Shown here: positions 1,348 to 26,304 of the stretch, in pieces
Position numbering within the stretch: the first letter of the stretch is position 1
Layout of the letters: every line of letters starts with the position of its first letter
Notes under the pieces: model-generated
What the model was told of the DNA's origin: nothing
The model's database searches: none
The model's input: only the letters and a program-made list of their open reading frames with translations
Source: an uncultured Planctomycetales bacterium
GTDB lineage: Bacteria; Planctomycetota; MHYJ01; JACPRB01
Direction: 5' to 3'
Assembly: GCA_964526305.1 (NCBI GenBank)
Contig: CAZGKV010000012.1
Location: 8,131 to 72,130 of the forward strand
Length of the DNA: 64,000 nt
Position numbers and translations under genes: made by a program

Positions 1348-1917
1348 ATGACCGATCTTCTGGAGCGCTTCGACGAACTCAGTCAAGAGTACCTCGCTTG
1401 GAAAGACCGCCGGCTCAAGCCGGCGCAAAAGGAATCGGCCAGAGGGCGGGTCGACGGCTACGTCCTTCGAGGAGCGGAGGGAGAAATTCCGCTTTCGAAG
1501 ATCATGGGCGCAAGGTCGGATCTCCTGGTCGTTCACAACATGGGTCGGTCCTGTCCCTACTGCACGATGTGGGCGGACGGCTTCAACGGACTCGTGACGC
1601 ACCTCGAGAATCGCGCGGCCTTCGTCTTGGTCTCCCCGGATCCCGTAGAGGCCCAGCAGGCGGTCCGTCTGAGTCGAGGCTGGAAGTTCTCGATGTACTC
1701 CAGTCTGGGAACGAGATTCAAACGGGATCTCGGATTCGAAGGCGAGGACGGCCGGCAGGTTCCGGGAGTGTCCGCCTTCCGTCGAGACGCGGATGGGACG
1801 ATTCGGAACGTGGCCAACGACGTCTTCGGGCCCGGGGACTCGTACTGCAGCGCCTGGCCGCTCTTCGATCTTCTCGAGGGCGGTCCGGGGAAATGGCAGC
1901 CGAAGCTGGGGTACTAA
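1348..1917 (+). CDS. DUF899 thioredoxin-like domain protein
   Basis: 189 aa with a CPYC motif and DUF899-like architecture. ATG 1348 lies 1 nt after the glgA stop. Confidence 0.7.
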   Translation: MTDLLERFDELSQEYLAWKDRRLKPAQKESARGRVDGYVLRGAEGEIPLSKIMGARSDLLVVHNMGRSCPYCTMWADGFNGLVTHLENRAAFVLVSPDPVEAQQAVRLSRGWKFSMYSSLGTRFKRDLGFEGEDGRQVPGVSAFRRDADGTIRNVANDVFGPGDSYCSAWPLFDLLEGGPGKWQPKLGY

Positions 1918-10910: not shown

Positions 10911-12290
10911 ATGGCGAAGCACGGACCCTTCGACGTCGTCGTTGTCGGCAGCGGACCCGCAGGATATGTCGCCGCCATTCGGGCGGGCCAGCTCGGACTC
11001 AAGACGGCCCTCGTCGAAAAGGACGGCAAGTACGGAGGCACGTGCCTCTGGCGGGGATGCATCCCAACGAAGGCCTTTCTGCACGACGCCTATCTCTACG
11101 ACCAGATCAAGAGCGCCTCGAGATACGGGATCGAAGTCGAGAAGGTGAGGGTCAACTGGGAGGGCGTCCTCAAACACAAGAACACGGTCGTCAAGAAGCT
11201 GGGGCTCGGGGTGGAGGGGCTCCTGAAGAAGAACAAGGTGCAATGCTTCGTGGGATTCGGTTCCGTCAAGAAGCCCGGTCTCGTGTCGGTGGGCGACGAC
11301 GAAATCCAGACGAAGAATATCGTCCTGGCTACGGGGTCCGACGTGAAGTGGTTCCCCGGGATGGAGCCCGACGGCAAGGGGATCATCACGAGCAACGAGG
11401 CCCTCGATCTCAAGGCGATCCCGAAGTCGATCGTCGTCATCGGCGCGGGCGCGGTGGGGATCGAATTCGCGTCCGTCTTCCACCGATTCGGCTCCGAAAC
11501 CACCCTGGTCGAGCTCCTGCCGCAAGTCGTCCCGCTGGAGGACGAGGAAATCGCGAGAGAGCTGGAGAGGATTCTGGCGAAGCGCGGGATGCGGATTCTC
11601 ACCGGGACCAAAGTCGAAGCGATCAAGCCGGGATATGAAGTCGTCGTCGCGCGCAACGGGAAATCGGAGACGATCAAGGCGGAAAAGGTGCTCGTTGCCG
11701 TGGGCCGAAAGCCGAATACGGAGAAGATCGGACTCGAGCACACCCGGGTGAAGACTGAACGCGGGTTTGTCAAGGTGAGTCCCGCGATGGAGACCGACGA
11801 GCCGGGGGTCTACGCGATCGGGGACATCGTCCCCACGCCGATGCTCGCGCACGTCGGGAGCGCGGAAGGGATCCTCGCAGTGACGCGCATCGCGGGGAAA
11901 GAGGTCCATCCCATCCTCTACGACCGAGTCCCGAGCGTCACCTACTGCGATCCGCAGGTCGCGAGCGTCGGACTCGGCGAGAAGAAGGCTCGCGAGCGCG
12001 GGTACGACGTCAAGGTGGGAAAGTTCCCCTTCTTGGGAATCGGAAAGGCGTCCATCGAGGGGGAGAACGAGGGGATGGTCAAGGTGGTCGGAGAGAGCAA
12101 GTACGGCGAGATTCTCGGCGTCCACATCCTTCACGCGCATGCGGGCGAGATGATCTCCGAGGCGGTCGCGGTGATGAACGGCGAGCTCACGGCGGAGGAA
12201 CTGGCGCACTCCATCCACCCCCATCCCACGCTCTCGGAGGCGGTCATGGAGGCGGCGCATGCCTATTACGGACAGGCGATCCATATCTGA
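10911..12290 (+). CDS. lpdA: dihydrolipoyl dehydrogenase
   Basis: VVGSGPAGY FAD motif, GGTCLWRGCIPTK redox-active disulfide, HAHP C-terminal motif, 459 aa. SD GGGGGAGG upstream. Confidence 0.92.
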   Translation: MAKHGPFDVVVVGSGPAGYVAAIRAGQLGLKTALVEKDGKYGGTCLWRGCIPTKAFLHDAYLYDQIKSASRYGIEVEKVRVNWEGVLKHKNTVVKKLGLGVEGLLKKNKVQCFVGFGSVKKPGLVSVGDDEIQTKNIVLATGSDVKWFPGMEPDGKGIITSNEALDLKAIPKSIVVIGAGAVGIEFASVFHRFGSETTLVELLPQVVPLEDEEIARELERILAKRGMRILTGTKVEAIKPGYEVVVARNGKSETIKAEKVLVAVGRKPNTEKIGLEHTRVKTERGFVKVSPAMETDEPGVYAIGDIVPTPMLAHVGSAEGILAVTRIAGKEVHPILYDRVPSVTYCDPQVASVGLGEKKARERGYDVKVGKFPFLGIGKASIEGENEGMVKVVGESKYGEILGVHILHAHAGEMISEAVAVMNGELTAEELAHSIHPHPTLSEAVMEAAHAYYGQAIHI

Positions 12291-12354
12291 CTTGGGTACA
12301 ATGTTCGGAGTCGATGAACAGGAGCCTTCACAAAGGAGTCCGGGAGGGCGGCGC

Positions 12355-12711
12355 ATGAAACGCTGGCTCGGACTGCTCGGAGTCTCGGCTTTCCTGGCCG
12401 CGGCGTGGTTCTATCAACCATCGATGCTCCCGAGTACCTGAACGATGAAGGTGGTGACGGGCCTGGGATGCCCGGGATGCGGACTCACGCGATCGGTGAC
12501 CTCGGCGGCGCACGCGAAGCTCGGCGAAGCGTTCCGATACCACATCTTTGGCCCGGCGATTCTCCTCGCGACGGTCGCGGCGTGGTTTGCGTTCTTGATC
12601 GGGCGGAAGGTACCGATCGACCATCCGCGGACCGCGAAGATCCTCCTGGGACTCGTCTTCGTGCTCATGGCCTATTGGATTGTCCGGATTCTCCTGGGAG
12701 CCGTCCCGTGA
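12355..12711 (+). CDS. DUF2752 family membrane protein interrupted by a single in-frame TGA (12439-12441) at the position of the first conserved Cys (Sec candidate or pseudogene)
   Basis: SD GGGAGGG 6 nt before ATG 12355. N-terminal TM helix (MKRWLGLLGVSAFLAAAWF), then ...LPST-TGA-TMKVVTGLGCPGCGLTRS plus two more TM helices. The two ORFs listed at 12259..12441 and 12445..12711 are in the same frame. Confidence 0.55.
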
Positions 12712-13568
12712 GCGAGGTCCAGGTCTCGCGCAAGCCGCCCTGGTTCAAGGTGCGTCTTCCCTCGGGCGAAGGGTATCGGACGACGCTCCAGGTCGCGCGC
12801 CAAAAGCGCCTCCACACGGTGTGCGAAGAGGCGCGGTGTCCCAACATCGCCGAATGCTGGGGGCGAAAGACCGCGACGTTCATGATTCTGGGCGACGTGT
12901 GCACGCGATCGTGCGGTTTCTGCGCCGTCAAAAGCGGAAGGCCGACCGAGCTCGATCTGAACGAGCCGATCCGGACGGCGCGGGCCGTACTGGAACTCGG
13001 GATCCGGCACGCCGTGATCACGAGCGTGAATCGAGACGAACTGGACGACGGCGGAGCGGGGATCTTCGCGGAAACGGTGCGGCAAATCCGCCGGGTCTCG
13101 CCCGGCACGCGGGTCGAGGTTCTCGTTCCCGACTTCCTGGGGAAGCGGGAAGCCCTACAGAAGATGTGGGAGGCGCGACCCGACGTCTTCGGCCACAACA
13201 TCGAGTGTGTCCCGCGCCTTCAGCGTGCCGTCCGAAGCGCCGCGAACTACGAGCGGTCCCTCTCCGTCCTCGAGGAAACGAAGAAGCAGGGGGACATGCT
13301 CGTCAAAACCGGGCTCCAGCTTGGACACGGCGAGTCGTGGGAGGAGATCCTCGCGGTGATGGAAGATCTGGTCCGCATTGGACTCGACATGTTCACGATC
13401 GGTCAGTATCTCCAGCCGACCCGAGAGCACCTTCCCGTCCGGCGGTGGTATACCCCGGCGGAATTCGCCTCGCTCCGCGAAGAGGCGCTTCGACGCGGAA
13501 TCCGATACTGCCAATCGGGTCCGTTGGTTCGAAGCTCCTATCGCGCCGAAGAACCGTTCGAACCGTAA
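12708..13568 (+). CDS. lipA: lipoyl synthase
   Basis: KPPWFKVRLP N-terminus, CEEARCPNIAECW and CTRSCGFC radical-SAM/Fe-S cysteine motifs. GTG 12708 overlaps the DUF2752 stop. Confidence 0.9.
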   Translation: MSEVQVSRKPPWFKVRLPSGEGYRTTLQVARQKRLHTVCEEARCPNIAECWGRKTATFMILGDVCTRSCGFCAVKSGRPTELDLNEPIRTARAVLELGIRHAVITSVNRDELDDGGAGIFAETVRQIRRVSPGTRVEVLVPDFLGKREALQKMWEARPDVFGHNIECVPRLQRAVRSAANYERSLSVLEETKKQGDMLVKTGLQLGHGESWEEILAVMEDLVRIGLDMFTIGQYLQPTREHLPVRRWYTPAEFASLREEALRRGIRYCQSGPLVRSSYRAEEPFEP

Positions 13569-13599: not shown

Positions 13600-15327
13600 A
13601 TGGAGAATCTGTCCCTCGTCCGCCTGGTCTGCGCGCGTCGCGCGCGATTCGCCGCGGTCGCCGCGTCCTCCCTCCTCGTAGGCGCCCTGGGATGGGCCAC
13701 GGCCTTTTTCGTGCAGGCGGTGCTGGACCGTATGGGACAGCCACATATTCTATGGTCCGCCGCCGCGACTCTGGCCGTCGTCGCCGTACTCCGTTTCGCG
13801 TTGGCCGTCCTCCGTCAGCGGCTTCAGCTCGGACTGGCCTACGGGGTCGAGGGGGAGCTGTCCGAGGAGTTCCTCCGCCATGTCGGTCGTCTCGAAATGC
13901 GAGCGGTCGAGCAAACCACGCCGGGAGACCTGGTGCGTCGCCTGCGGGGGGTGGACTACCTGCGGACTCTCCTCGAAGACCGCGCGGCGGGGATCGTTTT
14001 CGATGCCTGCCTCGCTCTGGGGGCCCTGCTTCTCCTGATCCTCAGGTCCCCGGCGTGCGTGCCCTTCGTCGTCGTTGGCGCGATGCTCCCCGCTCTCGTT
14101 TCGCTCGTGGCTCGACGGGGGTCCACGGCGTCGTTCCGCGAAATCCAAGAGGCCGATGGGCGATACACCCAGGGAACGATGGAGGCGGTGCGCGGGGTTC
14201 GAGAGGTTCGCCTGCTCGGTGCGGAGGATTGGATGTTGGGGCGCCTCACGAAGGTTCGCACGGCCTGGACGGCGGCTCGACGCCGTCATGTGCTTCGAGC
14301 CGGCACCGCGCAATCCTTGTCCCTCCTTCTCACCACGCTGTCGGGTGGGGCTCTTCTCCTCTTCGGGGCGCTTCGCAGGATGAGTCCCGGAGAGCTGATG
14401 TTCGTTCTCACCCTGGCGGGAATGCTCGTCGCGCCGCTGGAGCAACTCGTTTCGACGGGGGTCGTCTTCTCGGAAGCGCGGGTGGCCCTGACCCGAATCG
14501 AGGAAGTGCTCCGACTTCCCGCGGAACCGCGCCTCCGGGGCTCCGACGTCCCCCGAGGAGGGATCCGTCTCGAAGGAATCGACTTCGCGTATCGGCCGGA
14601 CCGCCCGGTCTTGCGAAACCTGGATCTGGAGATCCCCGAGGGATCCACGGTGGCCATCGTGGGCGAGAGCGGCGCAGGAAAATCGACGCTCCTGGCGCTC
14701 TTGTCGGGGCTGTACGTTCCGGATGCGGGACGGATTCTCGTCGGGGGCACGGACCTTCGCGCCTTGCCCCTCGAGGCGTGGAGGCGCCGAATGGGAGCCG
14801 TCTTTCACGATCCGCGCTTCTTCGAGGGAACGGTGTTGGAGAACCTCCGTCTGGGCTGCGAATCCGCTTCCTTCGAGGACGTACGGAGGGCGGCTCGAAA
14901 GGCGTGCGCCGAGGAATTCATCTTGCAGCATCCCCGGAAGTACGAGGCGCCCCTTCTTCGAGACGGATCCGGATTCTCCGCCGGGCAGCTCCAACGGTTG
15001 GCGTTGGCCCGCGCCTTGGCGCGGGAGCCCGAGTTGCTGCTTCTCGACGAGGCGACGAACAATCTCGACGCCCGAACGGAGGCGGGGGTGCTCGGAGCGC
15101 TTGCGGAGGGGCGGACGCGAAGGACGACCGTCTTCGTCTCGCATCGACTGGCGAGCACGGTGCGCGCGGACCGGATCGTCGTCCTTCACGAAGGACGCGT
15201 GGCCGAGTCGGGGACGATTCGCGATCTCCTGGAGCGGGACGGTCTCTACCGCCGCCTCTGGCACCGTCAGCTTCCCGTAAACGAATCGATCGGGAGGGTT
15301 CTCTCGATCCCGGAGGTACGACGATGA
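13600..15327 (+). CDS. ABC transporter, fused permease/ATPase (lasso-peptide exporter, D protein, McjD-like)
   Basis: Six-TM N-terminal domain, Walker A GESGAGKST, signature FSAGQLQRLALARAL, Walker B LLLLDEATNNLD. Stop overlaps the start of the lasso B gene. Confidence 0.85.
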   Translation: MENLSLVRLVCARRARFAAVAASSLLVGALGWATAFFVQAVLDRMGQPHILWSAAATLAVVAVLRFALAVLRQRLQLGLAYGVEGELSEEFLRHVGRLEMRAVEQTTPGDLVRRLRGVDYLRTLLEDRAAGIVFDACLALGALLLLILRSPACVPFVVVGAMLPALVSLVARRGSTASFREIQEADGRYTQGTMEAVRGVREVRLLGAEDWMLGRLTKVRTAWTAARRRHVLRAGTAQSLSLLLTTLSGGALLLFGALRRMSPGELMFVLTLAGMLVAPLEQLVSTGVVFSEARVALTRIEEVLRLPAEPRLRGSDVPRGGIRLEGIDFAYRPDRPVLRNLDLEIPEGSTVAIVGESGAGKSTLLALLSGLYVPDAGRILVGGTDLRALPLEAWRRRMGAVFHDPRFFEGTVLENLRLGCESASFEDVRRAARKACAEEFILQHPRKYEAPLLRDGSGFSAGQLQRLALARALAREPELLLLDEATNNLDARTEAGVLGALAEGRTRRTTVFVSHRLASTVRADRIVVLHEGRVAESGTIRDLLERDGLYRRLWHRQLPVNESIGRVLSIPEVRR

Positions 15328-16019
15328 CACACGTGGCCGAACACGTCCGGTGGCGGAAGATCGACGGCGCCGTCGTGATTCTGGATCTCCGATCCGAGAA
15401 GTACTTCGTCCTAGACGCGATCGGCACGGCAATCTGGGAAGGGATCGCCGAGGGGGTCGACTCCCAGGCCGAGATCTCCGCGCTGGCGACTCGATACGGC
15501 GTATCCCGAGAGCGCGTGGCGGAGGACGTTCGAGTCTTCGTGGATCGGGCCAAGGTGCAAGGACTCCTCGCGACTCGGCCGGCCGAGCCGCCGCCTCGGC
15601 TCCGTGCCGGCGCGAGAGAGGGGCGCCCCGCGTGTCCGACGCTTCGCGCGTGGTGGAGCCTCCTGGCGACGGCGCACCATCTCGCCCGTCACGGCTTTGC
15701 GGCGACGTACGGCGCGTACGAAGCGCTACCGGTGCCCGACGCCGCTGCGGACGTCGACGAGCGCCTCGCGGAGGCCGTCGCCGCCTTCGCCAAGGCCGAG
15801 AATGTTTTCCACATGAAGCGCGCGCCCGAGGACTGCGTCCCCCGATCGCTCGCCCTCTTCCGTTTCCTGCGTTCGGTGGGGATTCCCGTCGAGCATTGCA
15901 TCGGCGTTCGCCGCTTTCCGTTCGGGGCGCATGCTTGGGTGGAGTTCCGCGGCGAGATCGTCCACGACAGCCTTTCGACGACCACGAACTATGGGACCCT
16001 GGCGCGAATCGGGGTTTGA
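15324..16019 (+). CDS. lasso peptide biosynthesis B protein, fused B1 (PqqD-like RRE) and B2 (transglutaminase-like Cys protease)
   Basis: N-terminal PqqD-like region (WRKIDGAVVILDLRSEKYFVLDAIGTAIWEGI). C-terminal region with catalytic Cys (EDCVPRSLALFRFL) and the HAWVEF His motif typical of McjB-like leader peptidases. SD GGAGGT upstream. Confidence 0.85.
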   Translation: MTHVAEHVRWRKIDGAVVILDLRSEKYFVLDAIGTAIWEGIAEGVDSQAEISALATRYGVSRERVAEDVRVFVDRAKVQGLLATRPAEPPPRLRAGAREGRPACPTLRAWWSLLATAHHLARHGFAATYGAYEALPVPDAAADVDERLAEAVAAFAKAENVFHMKRAPEDCVPRSLALFRFLRSVGIPVEHCIGVRRFPFGAHAWVEFRGEIVHDSLSTTTNYGTLARIGV

Positions 16020-16048
16020 AGGCTTTTCTTACTTACGGGAGGAATGCC

Positions 16049-16195
16049 ATGACCGAAGAGTATCGCACACCCGAGATCGTGAACATGGGCGAGGTGACGG
16101 AACTGACGGGGGGCGGAAGCACGCCTCTCGCGGACATCCCGGGCGATCCGACGGGCGGATATAACCGCGGGAAACTCGAGGTGGAACTCGACTGA
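16049..16195 (+). CDS. lasso peptide precursor (A peptide), 48 aa
   Basis: MTEEYRTPEIVNMGEVTELTGGGSTPLADIPGDPTGGYNRGKLEVELD. Leader fits YxxPx(L/I)xxxGxxxxxTxG with Thr at -2. Predicted core GGSTPLADIPGDPTGGYNRGKLEVELD, with Gly1 and Asp8 as ring partners. SD GGGAGGA upstream. Confidence 0.8.
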   Translation: MTEEYRTPEIVNMGEVTELTGGGSTPLADIPGDPTGGYNRGKLEVELD

Positions 16196-16202
16196 CGGAT
16201 GT

Positions 16203-16233
16203 GGGGGAAGGGGCCCTCAGGGTCCTTTCCCCC
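16203..16233 (+). terminator. strong GC hairpin (14-bp stem incl. 2 G-U pairs, 3-nt loop) immediately after the lasso precursor gene; candidate partial terminator/attenuator
   Basis: GGGGGAAGGGGCCC-tca-GGGTCCTTTCCCCC, beginning 8 nt after the precursor stop. No U-tract. Confidence 0.5.
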
Positions 16234-16249
16234 TCCGGGGGAGATCGTC

Positions 16250-17968
16250 ATGAAAAGATTCTTCGGCCGCCTGCCTGCGTCGGAAACGGGATCTTCGGGT
16301 CCTTGCGTTTCGCACCGGGGGACCATCGCCAACCGAGAGGCGCTTCTCGAGGAGGCACGGCGTCGCGGAGAACCGATCGGGGAGGTGGGGGATGGCGATC
16401 TCCTTCTCCGGGCCTACCGGTGGTGGGGGGACGGATTGCAGGCTCGCGTTCTCGGAGAATACGCCGTGGCGATCGTGGACGAGCGAGCCGGCAGGGCCTT
16501 TCTTACTCACGACGGACTCGGCGTGATGCCGCTCTTCTACGGCCGGCACGGGGACGATTTCCTCTTCGGCTCGCATCTCGAAGATCTCGTCGCGCTTACG
16601 GGCGTCGGGGAACTCGACGAGGAATACCTCGCGGACGTCCTCTCCCTCGGAGTTCACTTGGGGGAGCGTACTCCCTATCGCCATCTCCGCCAGCTCCTCC
16701 CGGGCACCAGTCTGCGGTGGGAGGGGGGGCGCGTGTTCGTGCGGAAGACCTGGGATCTCTCCTCCGTGCGGTCGATCGAAGGGATTTCCGACGAGGAGTG
16801 CGAGGAGCGCTTGCGCTCCCTCCTGCGCGAAGGAGTGACGGCGGCTCTTCGGGCCGATGGACCGGTTTGGAGCGAGCTCTCCGGCGGCCTCGACTCCTCG
16901 TCCATCGTGTGCACCGCGGCGCACGCGGGCACGCGGCTGGACACCCTCTCCTTTACCACTCGCTCGCGCACGGCGGACGAGCAGAAATGGATTCGGGCGG
17001 TGGTGGAGAGATACGACCTTCCGTGGCACTCGATCGATTTCGACCGGTGTCCGCCGTTCTCCGAGATGCCGGACCGTTTCTTCGCGGTACCGAGCTCGGT
17101 CCTTTCCGTCGCCGGGCTTTATCGGAAGTACGAGGAGCTGCTTTCGGGGCACGGAGTGCAGGTCCTTCTGACGGGAACCGGAGGCGATCAGGTCTTCTGC
17201 GGAGATTACCCCGCTCCGGACCACCTGGCGGATCAGCTCTCTCTCGGTCGTATGCATCGGCTGATTCGAGGCGTACGCTCGTGGAGCGAAGGAAGCGACG
17301 AAAAGCGATCGTTCCTCCATGTCCTCCTGCGGGGCGCGATCCAACCCCGCCTGGATCATGCGCTGGATCGAAATCTCCGGAAGCGGGAACGCCCGGGCGT
17401 CCCGCCTTGGCTCCGCGCGGACTACGCGGGACGGATGATGCTGGAGGATCGAAGCCGGCGGAGAGTCGCTCCCCGGTGCCGGTCCGTGGGACAGCAGGGA
17501 CTCCTGGAACGCCTCTGGCCGGCGCATCTCGTGGCTACGGGACGGGCTCACTACGTCCGAGGCTTCGAGTTTCGGTACCCGCTGCTCTACCGCCCCCTCG
17601 TCGAGTTCCTGTTCGCGCTCCCGCACGATCGGAAGGCGGGACCGGACGAAGACCGGAGCCTCCAGCGTCGCGCGCTTCGCGGGATTCTTCCGGAGACGGT
17701 CCGGACACGGAGGGGGAAGATGGGCCCTCAACGCCTATATCACGACGGCTTGGCGAAGAGTCGGGAGTGGCTCGAGGCGCTGACCGACCGGCCGAGGGTC
17801 GTCGAGCGCGGATACGTGGACGCGGAGCGATGGCGCGAAGCCGTGGCCCGGATGCGGCACGGCGCGACGCACGGTCTTCCGCTCTTCCTCGGGACGGCGA
17901 CGCTCGAGGTGTGGCTCCGGGGCTTGGAGTCGGCGCCCGTTTTCGTTGACACTCCCTCCGCGAGGTGA
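16250..17968 (+). CDS. lasso peptide cyclase (asparagine synthetase B-like, C protein)
   Basis: SGGLDSS PP-loop motif and AsnB-like fold, 572 aa, immediately downstream of the precursor. Confidence 0.85.
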   Translation: MKRFFGRLPASETGSSGPCVSHRGTIANREALLEEARRRGEPIGEVGDGDLLLRAYRWWGDGLQARVLGEYAVAIVDERAGRAFLTHDGLGVMPLFYGRHGDDFLFGSHLEDLVALTGVGELDEEYLADVLSLGVHLGERTPYRHLRQLLPGTSLRWEGGRVFVRKTWDLSSVRSIEGISDEECEERLRSLLREGVTAALRADGPVWSELSGGLDSSSIVCTAAHAGTRLDTLSFTTRSRTADEQKWIRAVVERYDLPWHSIDFDRCPPFSEMPDRFFAVPSSVLSVAGLYRKYEELLSGHGVQVLLTGTGGDQVFCGDYPAPDHLADQLSLGRMHRLIRGVRSWSEGSDEKRSFLHVLLRGAIQPRLDHALDRNLRKRERPGVPPWLRADYAGRMMLEDRSRRRVAPRCRSVGQQGLLERLWPAHLVATGRAHYVRGFEFRYPLLYRPLVEFLFALPHDRKAGPDEDRSLQRRALRGILPETVRTRRGKMGPQRLYHDGLAKSREWLEALTDRPRVVERGYVDAERWREAVARMRHGATHGLPLFLGTATLEVWLRGLESAPVFVDTPSAR

Positions 17969-23518: not shown

Positions 23519-25036
23519 ATGACGATACGGATCGCGCTCCTGCTTGCCCTGGGCACCGCCGGAGGGACCCAGGAATCGAAGGGGCAGAGCTTCGACGAAA
23601 GGATCGAAGCGGAGCTGAAGAAGGCCGGAGTCCGGCCCGCCCCCCTCTGCGACGACGCCGATTTTCTCCGTCGTGTCTCGCTCGATCTCGCGGGCGTCAT
23701 CCCCACCCCCGAAGAGGTCGTGGCATTTCTGGACGATCGGAACTCCCAGAAGCGCTCGAAGAAGATCGACCAACTCCTGGCGGGAGCCGAGTTTGCCGAT
23801 CACTGGGCCCGAATCTGGATGGTCTTCCTCATCGGGACGCCGTTGGGCGACGCCGACCTCGGACGCGCGTGGTTCCTCGAGTACCTTCGGGATTCCCTCG
23901 CAAGAAACCAGCGATATGACCGTGTGGTGCGCGAGATCCTCGCCGCCGAAGGGAATCTCGACGAGAACAAGGCAGCCGTCTATCTCTATCGCTGGCAGGA
24001 CGCCGCCGACCAGACGAGCGCCGCGGTCCGCCACTTTCTCGGAGTTCAGCTCCGCTGCGCCCAGTGCCACGACCATCCCTTCGATTCGTGGACTCAGAGG
24101 GATTTCTGGGCGACGGCGGCCTTTTTCGCCCGAGCGACGCGCGGCTACAGCGAGGAAGAGATCGTGATGGAGCCGACCTACGGCTTCGAGATCGGTCGCT
24201 TGAGTTTGACCGAGGCCGAAGAAGGCGAAGTCGACTTGCCCGAAAGCCGGCATGCCATGAAACTTCCTCCCCGGTTCCTCGGCGAGAAGACGGATACGAA
24301 TCCGAAGCATCGCCGAAAGGCGCTCGCGGATTGGATGACATCGCCGAAGAACCCCTGGTTCGCGAAGGCTACCGTCAACCGCATCTGGGGGATTCTCCTC
24401 GGCCGCGGATTCGTTCATCCGGTGGACGATTTCGGGACTTCGAAGACCCCCGTCTACCCGGAAGCCCTGAACCGGCTCGCGGAGGAGTTCGTCCGATCCG
24501 GTTTCGACCTCCGCGCCTTGATTCGTAGGGTCTTGAATTCGCGGACCTATCAACGCGCTTCGCGACCGGCCGACTCCAAGCATCCGTTCGCCGCGGCGGA
24601 GCGCCGGCGAATGAGCCGACATCAGTATTTCACCTCCGTAGCCCGCGCCGGAGATTTCGACTTCACGTTCCCGGTCGAGATCGAGGAACGGGACCCCGCC
24701 ATGGGGCCGGCGACGGAGATGAAGGATTTCAAGGAAGACTATCTCTATCAGATCCAGCGCGCGAACTCGCCGGTCGAGAAGACGCTCCTTCGCATGAACG
24801 GATCGCTCGTCATCGACGCGATCGTCAGCGGCAAGCGGCTCCCGAAGACGCTCGAGACTTGCGATACGAACGAGAAGCGGATCGAATGGCTCTTCCTCGC
24901 CTCGCTCTCCCGACGACCGACGGTGGGAGAGCGTGACGTGTTCCTCGACTACCTCGACGGCAAGGAGGAGTATCCCGCCTATGAGGACATCCTCTGGACG
25001 CTCCTAAACTCCACGGAATTCGGAGTGAACCGATGA
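23519..25036 (+). CDS. DUF1549/DUF1553 domain protein (Planctomycete-type secreted protein)
   Basis: Signal peptide, LDLAGVIPTPEE (DUF1549) and LGVQLRCAQCHDHPFD (DUF1553) motifs. Confidence 0.8.
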   Translation: MTIRIALLLALGTAGGTQESKGQSFDERIEAELKKAGVRPAPLCDDADFLRRVSLDLAGVIPTPEEVVAFLDDRNSQKRSKKIDQLLAGAEFADHWARIWMVFLIGTPLGDADLGRAWFLEYLRDSLARNQRYDRVVREILAAEGNLDENKAAVYLYRWQDAADQTSAAVRHFLGVQLRCAQCHDHPFDSWTQRDFWATAAFFARATRGYSEEEIVMEPTYGFEIGRLSLTEAEEGEVDLPESRHAMKLPPRFLGEKTDTNPKHRRKALADWMTSPKNPWFAKATVNRIWGILLGRGFVHPVDDFGTSKTPVYPEALNRLAEEFVRSGFDLRALIRRVLNSRTYQRASRPADSKHPFAAAERRRMSRHQYFTSVARAGDFDFTFPVEIEERDPAMGPATEMKDFKEDYLYQIQRANSPVEKTLLRMNGSLVIDAIVSGKRLPKTLETCDTNEKRIEWLFLASLSRRPTVGERDVFLDYLDGKEEYPAYEDILWTLLNSTEFGVNR

Positions 25037-26304
25037 CGTGCGACTGTTCGCGCCGAGATCTCCTCAAAGTCGGCTCCGGGGGCCTGCTCGCCATGCTCTT
25101 CTCCGGCAAGCTCGGCTCCGTCTTCGGGCAGGAGCAGGCGGCGCGGGCGAAGGCCTGCATCTTTCTCTTTATGTACGGCGGCCCGAGCCACATCGACACG
25201 TGGGATCCGAAGCCCAAGAGCCCCTGCGGGGGGACCTTCAGGCCGATCCGTACCAAGGCGGGATATGAGATCTGCGAGCACATGCCCGAGATCGCCAAAG
25301 TCTCGACAAAGATCTCGATCATCCGCTCGATGACCTCGAAAGAAGTCGATCACGGTCGTGGCGCGTATTATCTTCGCACCGGATATCGGCCTCAGGAAAG
25401 CGTCGAGCATCCGCCTCTGGGCTCGATCTTCGCGAAGGAGCTCGCGAGAGACGACGCGGACGTCCCCCCGTTCGTCACGATCTCGCCTGGATTCGATACC
25501 GGATTGGGTGCCGGCCTCCTCGGCGAAGTCTGGTCTCCCTTCATCCTCGACACGCCCGGCGAGGTCCCATCGACGCTCGCGTGCCCCGACATCCTCAGCG
25601 AAGAGCGGCAGTCCGACCGACTCCGGCTCCTCGAGGAGTACGAGAAGCGTTTCGGCGAACAGCGCATGGAGGGCGAGGCGGCGTTAGCACGATCTCTGCA
25701 CCAGAAGGCGGCCCGGTACAGGAAGGGCCCCCTTCGTCGCGCGTTGGATCTCTCTCGGGAGGAGGATTCCGTGCGAGAGGCGTACGGCAAGAACGACGGC
25801 GGGTACACGCCCTTCGGACAATCCTGCCTCACCGCCCGCCGACTCGTAGAATCGGGCGTCAAGTTCGTCGAGATTACCCACCAGGGATGGGACACCCACG
25901 AGAACAATTTCGATCTCACGCGCGACCTGTGCCGCGAGACGGATGCGGGATTCGCCGCGCTCGTCCGGGATTTGGACCGACGCGGGGTCCTGGACTCCAC
26001 GCTGATCGTGTGGGCCGGTGAATTCGGCCGAACTCCCAACATCAACGCCCAAGGCGGACGGGACCATCACGGAGATGTCTTCTCAATCGCGCTGGCGGGC
26101 GGCGGGATCCGCGGGGGCCTCGTCGTGGGCGCAAGCGACCCCGACGGTTCGCAGGTCCAGCATCGAGCGGTCACCTTCCCCGAAGTGATGGCGACCGCAG
26201 CCGCGCTGGCAGGCCTCAATCCCGAGAAAGAGTATTCCACTCCCGAAGAGCGCCCCATCAAGCTCGTTGACGACGCCCGGCCCATCCGCGAGCTGATCTC
26301 GTAG
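25033..26304 (+). CDS. DUF1501 domain protein (sulfatase-like, Tat signal)
   Basis: SRRDLLK twin-arginine motif, GGPSHIDTWDPKP, C-terminal GGRDHH. Start overlaps the DUF1549 gene stop. Confidence 0.8.
   Translation: MTCDCSRRDLLKVGSGGLLAMLFSGKLGSVFGQEQAARAKACIFLFMYGGPSHIDTWDPKPKSPCGGTFRPIRTKAGYEICEHMPEIAKVSTKISIIRSMTSKEVDHGRGAYYLRTGYRPQESVEHPPLGSIFAKELARDDADVPPFVTISPGFDTGLGAGLLGEVWSPFILDTPGEVPSTLACPDILSEERQSDRLRLLEEYEKRFGEQRMEGEAALARSLHQKAARYRKGPLRRALDLSREEDSVREAYGKNDGGYTPFGQSCLTARRLVESGVKFVEITHQGWDTHENNFDLTRDLCRETDAGFAALVRDLDRRGVLDSTLIVWAGEFGRTPNINAQGGRDHHGDVFSIALAGGGIRGGLVVGASDPDGSQVQHRAVTFPEVMATAAALAGLNPEKEYSTPEERPIKLVDDARPIRELIS

Follow-up and report, generated by a model that had tools for sequence, protein, structure and literature searches.

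We propose that an in-frame TGA in a DUF2752 gene, found in the 64,000-nucleotide stretch of DNA analyzed here (the window), is probably a selenocysteine (Sec) codon, in which case DUF2752 would be a selenoprotein family previously unlisted. As judged from the sequences, positions 12355-12711 would then encode one intact 118-residue membrane protein, with the UGA at codon 29 being read as selenocysteine. The proposal follows the standard comparative criteria, since the UGA is conserved, other homologues carry Cys in its place, and the sequence on both sides of it is under selection. An earlier note on this DNA had already named the gene as a selenocysteine candidate. That claim stood as far as the Sec/Cys pairing and the conservation of the flanks are concerned, but the candidate hairpins downstream of the TGA turned out to be permissive only.

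DUF2752 is a widespread bacterial membrane family of unknown function. In the window, its translation follows one frame that runs from ATG 12355 through MKRWLGLLGVSAFLAAAWFYQPSMLPST, the TGA at 12439-12441 and TMKVVTGLGCPGCGLTRS... to the TGA at 12709-12711 (Table 1). The upstream ORF of the earlier note was indeed closed by a same-frame TGA at 12439-12441, but it does not begin at 12259, as the conserved start is ATG 12355. The good Shine-Dalgarno sequence that had been pointed out, GGGAGGG, was located at 12342-12348, 6 nt before this ATG. Coupling to the downstream lipA gene was likewise found as an overlap of stop and start codons, although the overlap reads GTGA (GTG 12708-12710) and not ATGA. 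With Cys placed at the TGA, the joined protein matched the Pfam profile PF10825 (DUF2752) with 53.3 bits (E 2.8e-14; the gathering cut-off is 27 bits), and the 88-aa part alone scored 51.5 bits. Residue 29, encoded by the TGA, fell on profile position 1. An alignment with DUF2752 homologues, a check suggested in the earlier note, showed Cys at this position in 121 of 121 sequences, and in total all homologues examined other than the TGA-bearing ones (roughly 135) had Cys. The TGA thus sits exactly at the first conserved Cys, as had been claimed. Invariant columns among the 121 proteins were the first Cys, both Cys of CPGCG, and the following G, T and R. All of these are present in the window, the first Cys being encoded by TGA. 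Together they form the motif C-x9-CPGCG-x-TR after an N-terminal transmembrane helix, of which CPGCG-x-TR is intact in all three sequences with TGA that are described below.

Table 1. Positions of the DUF2752 gene, its elements and its neighbors in the window
Feature	Position	Strand	Remarks
DUF2752 gene, full length	12355..12711	+	118 codons including the in-frame TGA; stop 12709-12711; MKRW start common to 8 orthologues
Shine-Dalgarno-like GGGAGGG	12342..12348	+	6 nt 5' of ATG 12355; read from the sequence
N-terminal 28 codons 5' of the TGA	12355..12438	+	MKRW, first transmembrane helix and linker; homologous to N-termini of Cys forms
In-frame TGA, candidate Sec codon	12439..12441	+	First invariant Cys of DUF2752; TGC/TGT in six Cys-form loci, TGA in L132 and L143
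ATG, second codon past the TGA	12445..12447	+	Start of the gene-caller 88-aa ORF (P0001); possible restart codon
CPGCG codons (invariant motif)	12469..12483	+	10 residues past the TGA position
SECIS-like hairpin A	12458..12481	+	12462-12467 (CCUGGG) pairs with 12471-12476 (CCCGGG), six contiguous pairs; loop AUG 12468-12470
SECIS-like hairpin B	12471..12483	+	Stem CCCG/CGGG, loop GGAUG, 33 nt after the UGA; mutually exclusive with hairpin A
lipA (lipoyl synthase)	12708..13568	+	GTG start 12708-12710 overlaps the DUF2752 stop (GTGA); P0005 100% identical
lpdA-like dihydrolipoyl dehydrogenase	10911..12290	+	Pyr_redox_2, Pyr_redox_dim; 64-nt spacer before the DUF2752 gene
Lasso-type cluster: ABC transporter	13600-15327	+	
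Lasso-type cluster: PqqD and transglutaminase-core fusion	15324-16019	+	
Lasso-type cluster: candidate 48-aa precursor	16049-16195	+	MTEEYRTPEIVNMGEVTELTGGGSTPLADIPGDPTGGYNRGKLEVELD
Lasso-type cluster: Asn-synthase-like cyclase	16199-17968	+	

A protein search with LipA returned relatives at 70-83% identity, which belong to Planctomycetota metagenome-assembled genomes (MAGs) according to NCBI. In one of these (L132; Planctomycetota MAG GCA_016190175.1), where LipA is 83% identical to that of the window, the DUF2752 gene reads MKRWIAFLVLSGVLAAAWFYRPVLPAT-TGA-TMKIVTGLGCPGCGMTRS..., with the TGA at the same codon. Another orthologue (L143; Logan SRR27730036), found through the truncated protein P0245 by an exhaustive search of representatives and then of the contig, reads VKRWLAFAGVTALLAAAWFYRPSMLPAT-TGA-TVKIVTGVGCPGCGMTRA.... 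These two and the window constitute the TGA forms. The codon was TGC or TGT in six orthologue loci (L136-L141), and 15 orthologous proteins (P0125-P0139) had Cys at the position. An in-frame UGA opposite a Cys in homologues, together with UGA homologues in other organisms in which both flanks are conserved (L132 and L143), is what bacterial selenoproteins are recognized by. The Cys-form orthologues of the Planctomycetota clade (P0128/L139, P0126/L137 and P0136/L140; 48-61% identity, 117-120 aa) share the MKRW start, the first helix, the C-x9-CPGCG-x-TR motif and the three-helix membrane architecture with the TGA forms. They also share the position between lpdA (sometimes with a DUF4234 gene in between) and lipA and the overlapping stop and start codons. 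They differ in having TGC or TGT instead of TGA, and in the residue preceding this codon, which is Met, Leu or Phe in the Cys-form orthologues and Thr in the TGA forms.

Several other searches were run for relatives and for further TGA forms. A protein search with the DUF2752 product matched nothing beyond the 88-aa fragment and distantly related members of DUF2752, and a metagenome scan with the protein gave no relatives. In a LipA scan of the GTDB species genomes, the best of the matches listed were 60% identical and none of them adjoined a DUF2752 gene; neither the lineage nor the window's own genome was among the matches listed. A scan of JGI metagenomes with the pattern TGA-N18-GG-N7-TGYCCNGGNTGYGGN-NNN-ACN-MG found no DUF2752 gene with TGA at this codon, as its 49 matches were all off-frame chance hits in GC-rich DNA. 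Since the known TGA forms are missing from that collection too, we do not count this as counter-evidence. The window was also scanned by codon score for other genes interrupted by TGA; no convincing candidate came up, and because the positive control was missed as well, these scans are insensitive. P0341, a truncated DUF2752 representative on a low-coverage 548-nt contig, is a Cys form. Three DUF2752 proteins from other lineages (P0248, P0271 and P0358) have predicted starts 1-5 residues past the position of the first Cys (MTGVGCPGCG..., MTGLWCPGCG... and MFHLITGHGCPGCG...), and may represent additional TGA forms, starts that were called wrongly, or fragments at contig edges.

The three TGA forms were monophyletic and nested among Cys forms (NJ bootstrap 86/100), so the simplest history is a single Cys-to-TGA event (TGC to TGA) that was later retained. 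Protein identity among them was 60-65%, with the window differing from L132 and L143 at approximately 35-40% of residues, and dS values amounted to 0.8-0.9 downstream of the TGA and from 0.6 to more than 3 in the short upstream part. For the 27 codons upstream, dN/dS was 0.18 for the window versus L132, 0.05 for the window versus L143 and 0.34 for the third pair (Fisher p for pN < pS of 6e-4, 2e-6 and 0.07, respectively). For the 89 codons downstream it ranged from 0.28 to 0.42 (p <= 1e-3). The whole-gene value for the window versus L132 was 0.25, and pairs of Cys forms gave 0.20-0.42. By these substitution patterns, purifying selection acts on both flanks of the TGA, and its strength equals that seen between Cys forms. 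The sole indel upstream is one whole codon (3 nt in frame, relative to L132). All TGA forms have kept the start codon and either a Shine-Dalgarno sequence or coupling through overlapping stop codons, and they contain no further stops. Of all single-step nonsense mutations, about one in 21-40 would fall on this codon, and chance comes nowhere near accounting for a TGA shared by three diverged orthologues.

Two alternative hairpins can be drawn downstream of the UGA (Table 1). In the consensus of bacterial SECIS elements (bSECIS) given in a 2026 review (PMC13188914), the loop lies 16-37 nt past the UGA, measures 3-9 nt and has a G among its first two positions, the upper stem is 4-16 bp long and the minimum free energy is at most -7.5 kcal/mol. 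Hairpin A, in which G12461 additionally pairs with U12478 across a bulged A12477, has its loop 26 nt after the UGA and a local fold of -12.1 kcal/mol. It fits the consensus in spacing, stem, loop size and energy. In its most stable form, neither of the first two loop nucleotides is a G. Only a less stable form, in which the closing pair is open (loop GAUGC, 5-bp stem, 25 nt spacing), obeys the loop-G rule. The stem of hairpin A is identical in L132; in L143 one pair is broken and one has become G-U. For hairpin B, both L132 and L143 have a 4-bp stem, and the window has one of only 3 bp. RNAalifold chose yet another register, and for the three TGA forms it detected no covariation in the post-UGA hairpin. 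The fold after the UGA had a z-score of -1.38 relative to shuffled sequences. Cys forms fold equally stable hairpins in the same region, as the G-x-G-C-P-G-C-G codons produce the structure incidentally in GC-rich DNA. This suggests that a suitable hairpin predates the Cys-to-TGA change. Conservation at synonymous sites after the UGA was, for the window and L132, 10 of 12 codons (0.83, the highest of all pairs) versus 28 of 57 elsewhere (p = 0.053). Because of this p value, and because some pairs that include a Cys form reached 0.75-0.78, this signature was not relied on. A search of Rfam returned nothing relevant; to our knowledge, Rfam has no bacterial SECIS family. The SECIS evidence is permissive, not diagnostic.

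With respect to the machinery for selenocysteine insertion, the 64-kb window contains no tRNA genes, and Pfam scans of about 50 ORFs across it gave no SelA, SelB or SelD domains. This says little, since 64 kb is a small part of a genome. Complete gene sets for Sec insertion have been reported in several Planctomycetes (PMC4807772).

The in-frame TGA might be explained in other ways, of which the earlier note had raised a sequencing error and a fresh pseudogene; both were contradicted by the data. An error of sequencing or assembly at 12441, with TGC or TGT as the true codon, has a practically negligible probability. Nothing was found in its favor. Two more assemblies (ENA ERZ27245685, L001; Logan SRR5747861, L002) match the window without a difference over 231 nt that include the TGA, and two diverged orthologues, which come from unrelated samples, share the TGA at this codon. 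TGA terminates more of the window's well-supported genes than any other stop, among them lpdA and the DUF2752 gene itself, and a changed genetic code was rejected on this ground. The gene could also have been knocked out by a nonsense mutation, whether through recent separate events in the individual lineages or through a single one in their ancestor, and the presence of an in-frame stop that is confined to one small clade agrees with this. A pseudogene nevertheless has barely any chance of being the right explanation. The TGA is common to three lineages that are no near-identical strains (60-65% amino-acid identity) and whose synonymous sites are near saturation (dS of 0.8-0.9 or more), and three independent strikes on one codon would have a chance of about (1/21 to 1/40) squared. 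Moreover, dN/dS stays at 0.05-0.42 on both sides with a significant synonymous excess, and the start codons and the translational coupling to lipA are retained. What would mark a pseudogene, that is a dN/dS near 1, further lesions such as extra stops or frameshifts, or a lesion unshared with diverged relatives, was not observed.

The main rival is a conserved split gene, which was absent from the three readings of the earlier note; purifying selection on both halves is compatible with two functional pieces. Here, the UGA would end a 28-residue single-helix peptide, translation would restart two codons on, at ATG 12445, to give an 88-residue protein, and both pieces would assemble in the membrane, the clade having dispensed with the first cysteine. 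All three TGA forms have a start codon 3 nt past the stop (ATG, ATG, and GTG in L143), and gene callers annotate the 88-aa ORF. The Met at the restart position is ancestral (C-T-M-K in Cys forms) and TGC is the only codon near the ATG that is one step away from a stop, so that a TGC-to-TGA change also creates a stop-restart junction. Even so, we consider a split gene improbable. It requires the loss of a residue that is Cys in every one of the 121 homologues, while CPGCG-x-TR and the overall constraint have remained as strong as in Cys forms. No Shine-Dalgarno-like motif precedes the restart codon in any TGA form, and in L143 this codon is now the weaker GTG. The stop is also TGA in 3 of 3 cases, as Sec requires, whereas a plain stop has three options. 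Alternatively, the full-length protein might be made without selenium, by leaky termination or recoding through a near-cognate or dedicated tRNA (a UGA-reading tRNA-Cys, or mis-insertion of Trp). A conserved UGA and selection on its flanks do not specify the amino acid that is inserted, and the SECIS evidence is weak. Such read-through would, however, have to be site-specific, since most genes in the window, DUF2752 itself among them, end in TGA as their normal stop. Trp is unlikely to be functional at an invariant Cys, the 64-kb window has no suppressor tRNA, and dedicated UGA-to-Cys systems are rare. We regard Sec-independent recoding as very improbable. That the Planctomycetota with TGA forms have no Sec machinery at all, and deal with the UGA by site-specific recoding (e.g. 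to Cys) or by a programmed stop-restart, we regard as unlikely, with a small but real chance. A programmed stop-restart, if true, would have split a protein with three membrane helices into two conserved pieces that lack the invariant cysteine.

The genomic neighborhood of DUF2752 is conserved. In the relatives, lpdA is followed by DUF2752 and then lipA, with or without a DUF4234 gene after lpdA, and the stop and start codons overlap. Within the clade, the coupling to lipA and the preceding lpdA hint at a link to lipoyl/dithiol metabolism. The DUF4234 gene encodes a membrane protein with a zinc-ribbon N-terminus, and is located directly 5' of DUF2752 with overlapping stop and start codons in most orthologous loci (L132 2337-2885; L137 1709-2269; L139 212-781; L140 2429-3004; L141 452-1048; L143 1000-1572). 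It is absent from the window, where there is a 64-nt spacer (12291-12354), and from the subclade with 120-aa proteins (L136 and L138). The DUF4234 protein may be a functional partner of DUF2752. Current annotation splits or misses the DUF2752 gene, in that either the 88-aa fragment or an over-extended lipA is called. The lipA frame is open far 5' of its true GTG start and overlaps DUF2752 (window 12405-13568; L132 3001-4119; L136 490-1644), so that public calls give an over-long LipA (372 and 384 aa) and omit DUF2752. As a consequence, Cys and TGA forms alike are hidden from protein databases.

Elsewhere in the window, a lasso-peptide-type cluster (13600-17968, plus strand) is situated between lipA and a block of PvlArgDC, deoxyhypusine synthase, Memo and AspRS genes; in the relatives L133 and L135-L138 this block directly follows lipA on its 3' side. 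The candidate precursor of the cluster has a Thr two residues ahead of a core that starts with Gly, and position 8 or 9 of this core is an Asp. A PSCyt2/PSD1 (DUF1549/DUF1553) and DUF1501 gene pair, which is characteristic of Planctomycetota, lies at 23519-26304 (plus strand), in line with the placement suggested by the LipA relatives. With this pair and the lipA neighborhood that it shares with Planctomycetota MAGs, the window has a gene content typical of the phylum. A thioredoxin-fold protein that resembles DUF899/AhpC-TSA is encoded at 1348-1917 (plus strand), directly after a glycogen synthase gene; nothing suggestive of an in-frame TGA was seen in this gene.

We know of no solved structure for DUF2752, and neither Foldseek nor a sequence profile found relatives of the DUF2752 model in the PDB. 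The AF2 model of the Cys orthologue P0126 (pLDDT 91.6) has long helices at 2-19, 65-80 and 90-113. In this model, the Cys/Sec position opens a short helix (29-34) and CPGCG opens another (39-51). A CxxC at a helix N-terminus with a third invariant Cys/Sec, as modeled, fits a redox-active or metal-binding center at the membrane surface. Bacterial selenocysteine is nearly always located at a catalytic redox or metal-binding position, and for this reason a Sec form would mark the first Cys and the CPGCG pair as the active site.

For the selenocysteine reading, we envisage that the invariant first Cys codon changed from TGC to TGA in the ancestor of a small Planctomycetota clade. The sequence coding for G-L-G-C-P-G-C-G, 20-45 nt downstream, would at that time already have formed a GC-rich hairpin with a small, G-containing loop. 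This pre-existing hairpin could have acted as a SECIS element bound by SelB, allowing insertion from Sec-tRNA(Sec) instead of termination. A selenol would thereby have replaced the thiol of a residue that presumably cooperates with the CPGCG pair ten residues on, and the first Cys/Sec and CPGCG may together carry out thiol/disulfide redox chemistry or serve as metal ligands. If the codon is indeed read as Sec, this would suggest that DUF2752 takes part in thiol/selenol redox or metal chemistry at the membrane, for which the tight coupling with lpdA and lipA in the clade provides a concrete and testable context. The bacterial selenoproteome would gain a membrane protein family and a lineage of uncultured Planctomycetota, and there would be an example of a SECIS-like hairpin that the coding sequence had already produced incidentally in a Cys ancestor.

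A Sec/Cys selenoprotein family that is found by comparative genomics is of a well-known kind. In the searchable literature we found no mention of 'DUF2752' or 'PF10825', and no NCBIfam model matched the DUF2752 protein. The selenoprotein table in the 2026 review (PMC13188914) likewise does not list DUF2752, which in this respect differs from the families of unknown function with Sec/Cys pairs listed there (DUF3179, DUF1573, DUF1858 and DUF523), as it does in that its candidate SECIS is not convincing. Those families otherwise present the same picture, with an in-frame UGA opposite a conserved Cys and a second Cys motif adjacent to it. Like DUF2752 on the proposed reading, they have many Cys homologues and few Sec forms, and they are identified by conserved flanks and a downstream stem-loop. 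The small integral membrane selenoproteins (PMC13188914) show neither sequence nor fold relationship to DUF2752 that we could detect, and their spacing is UxxC or UxC versus the putative U-x9-CxxC of DUF2752. What they would have in common with DUF2752 is that, in a small membrane protein, Sec takes the place of a single Cys within a short Cys cluster.
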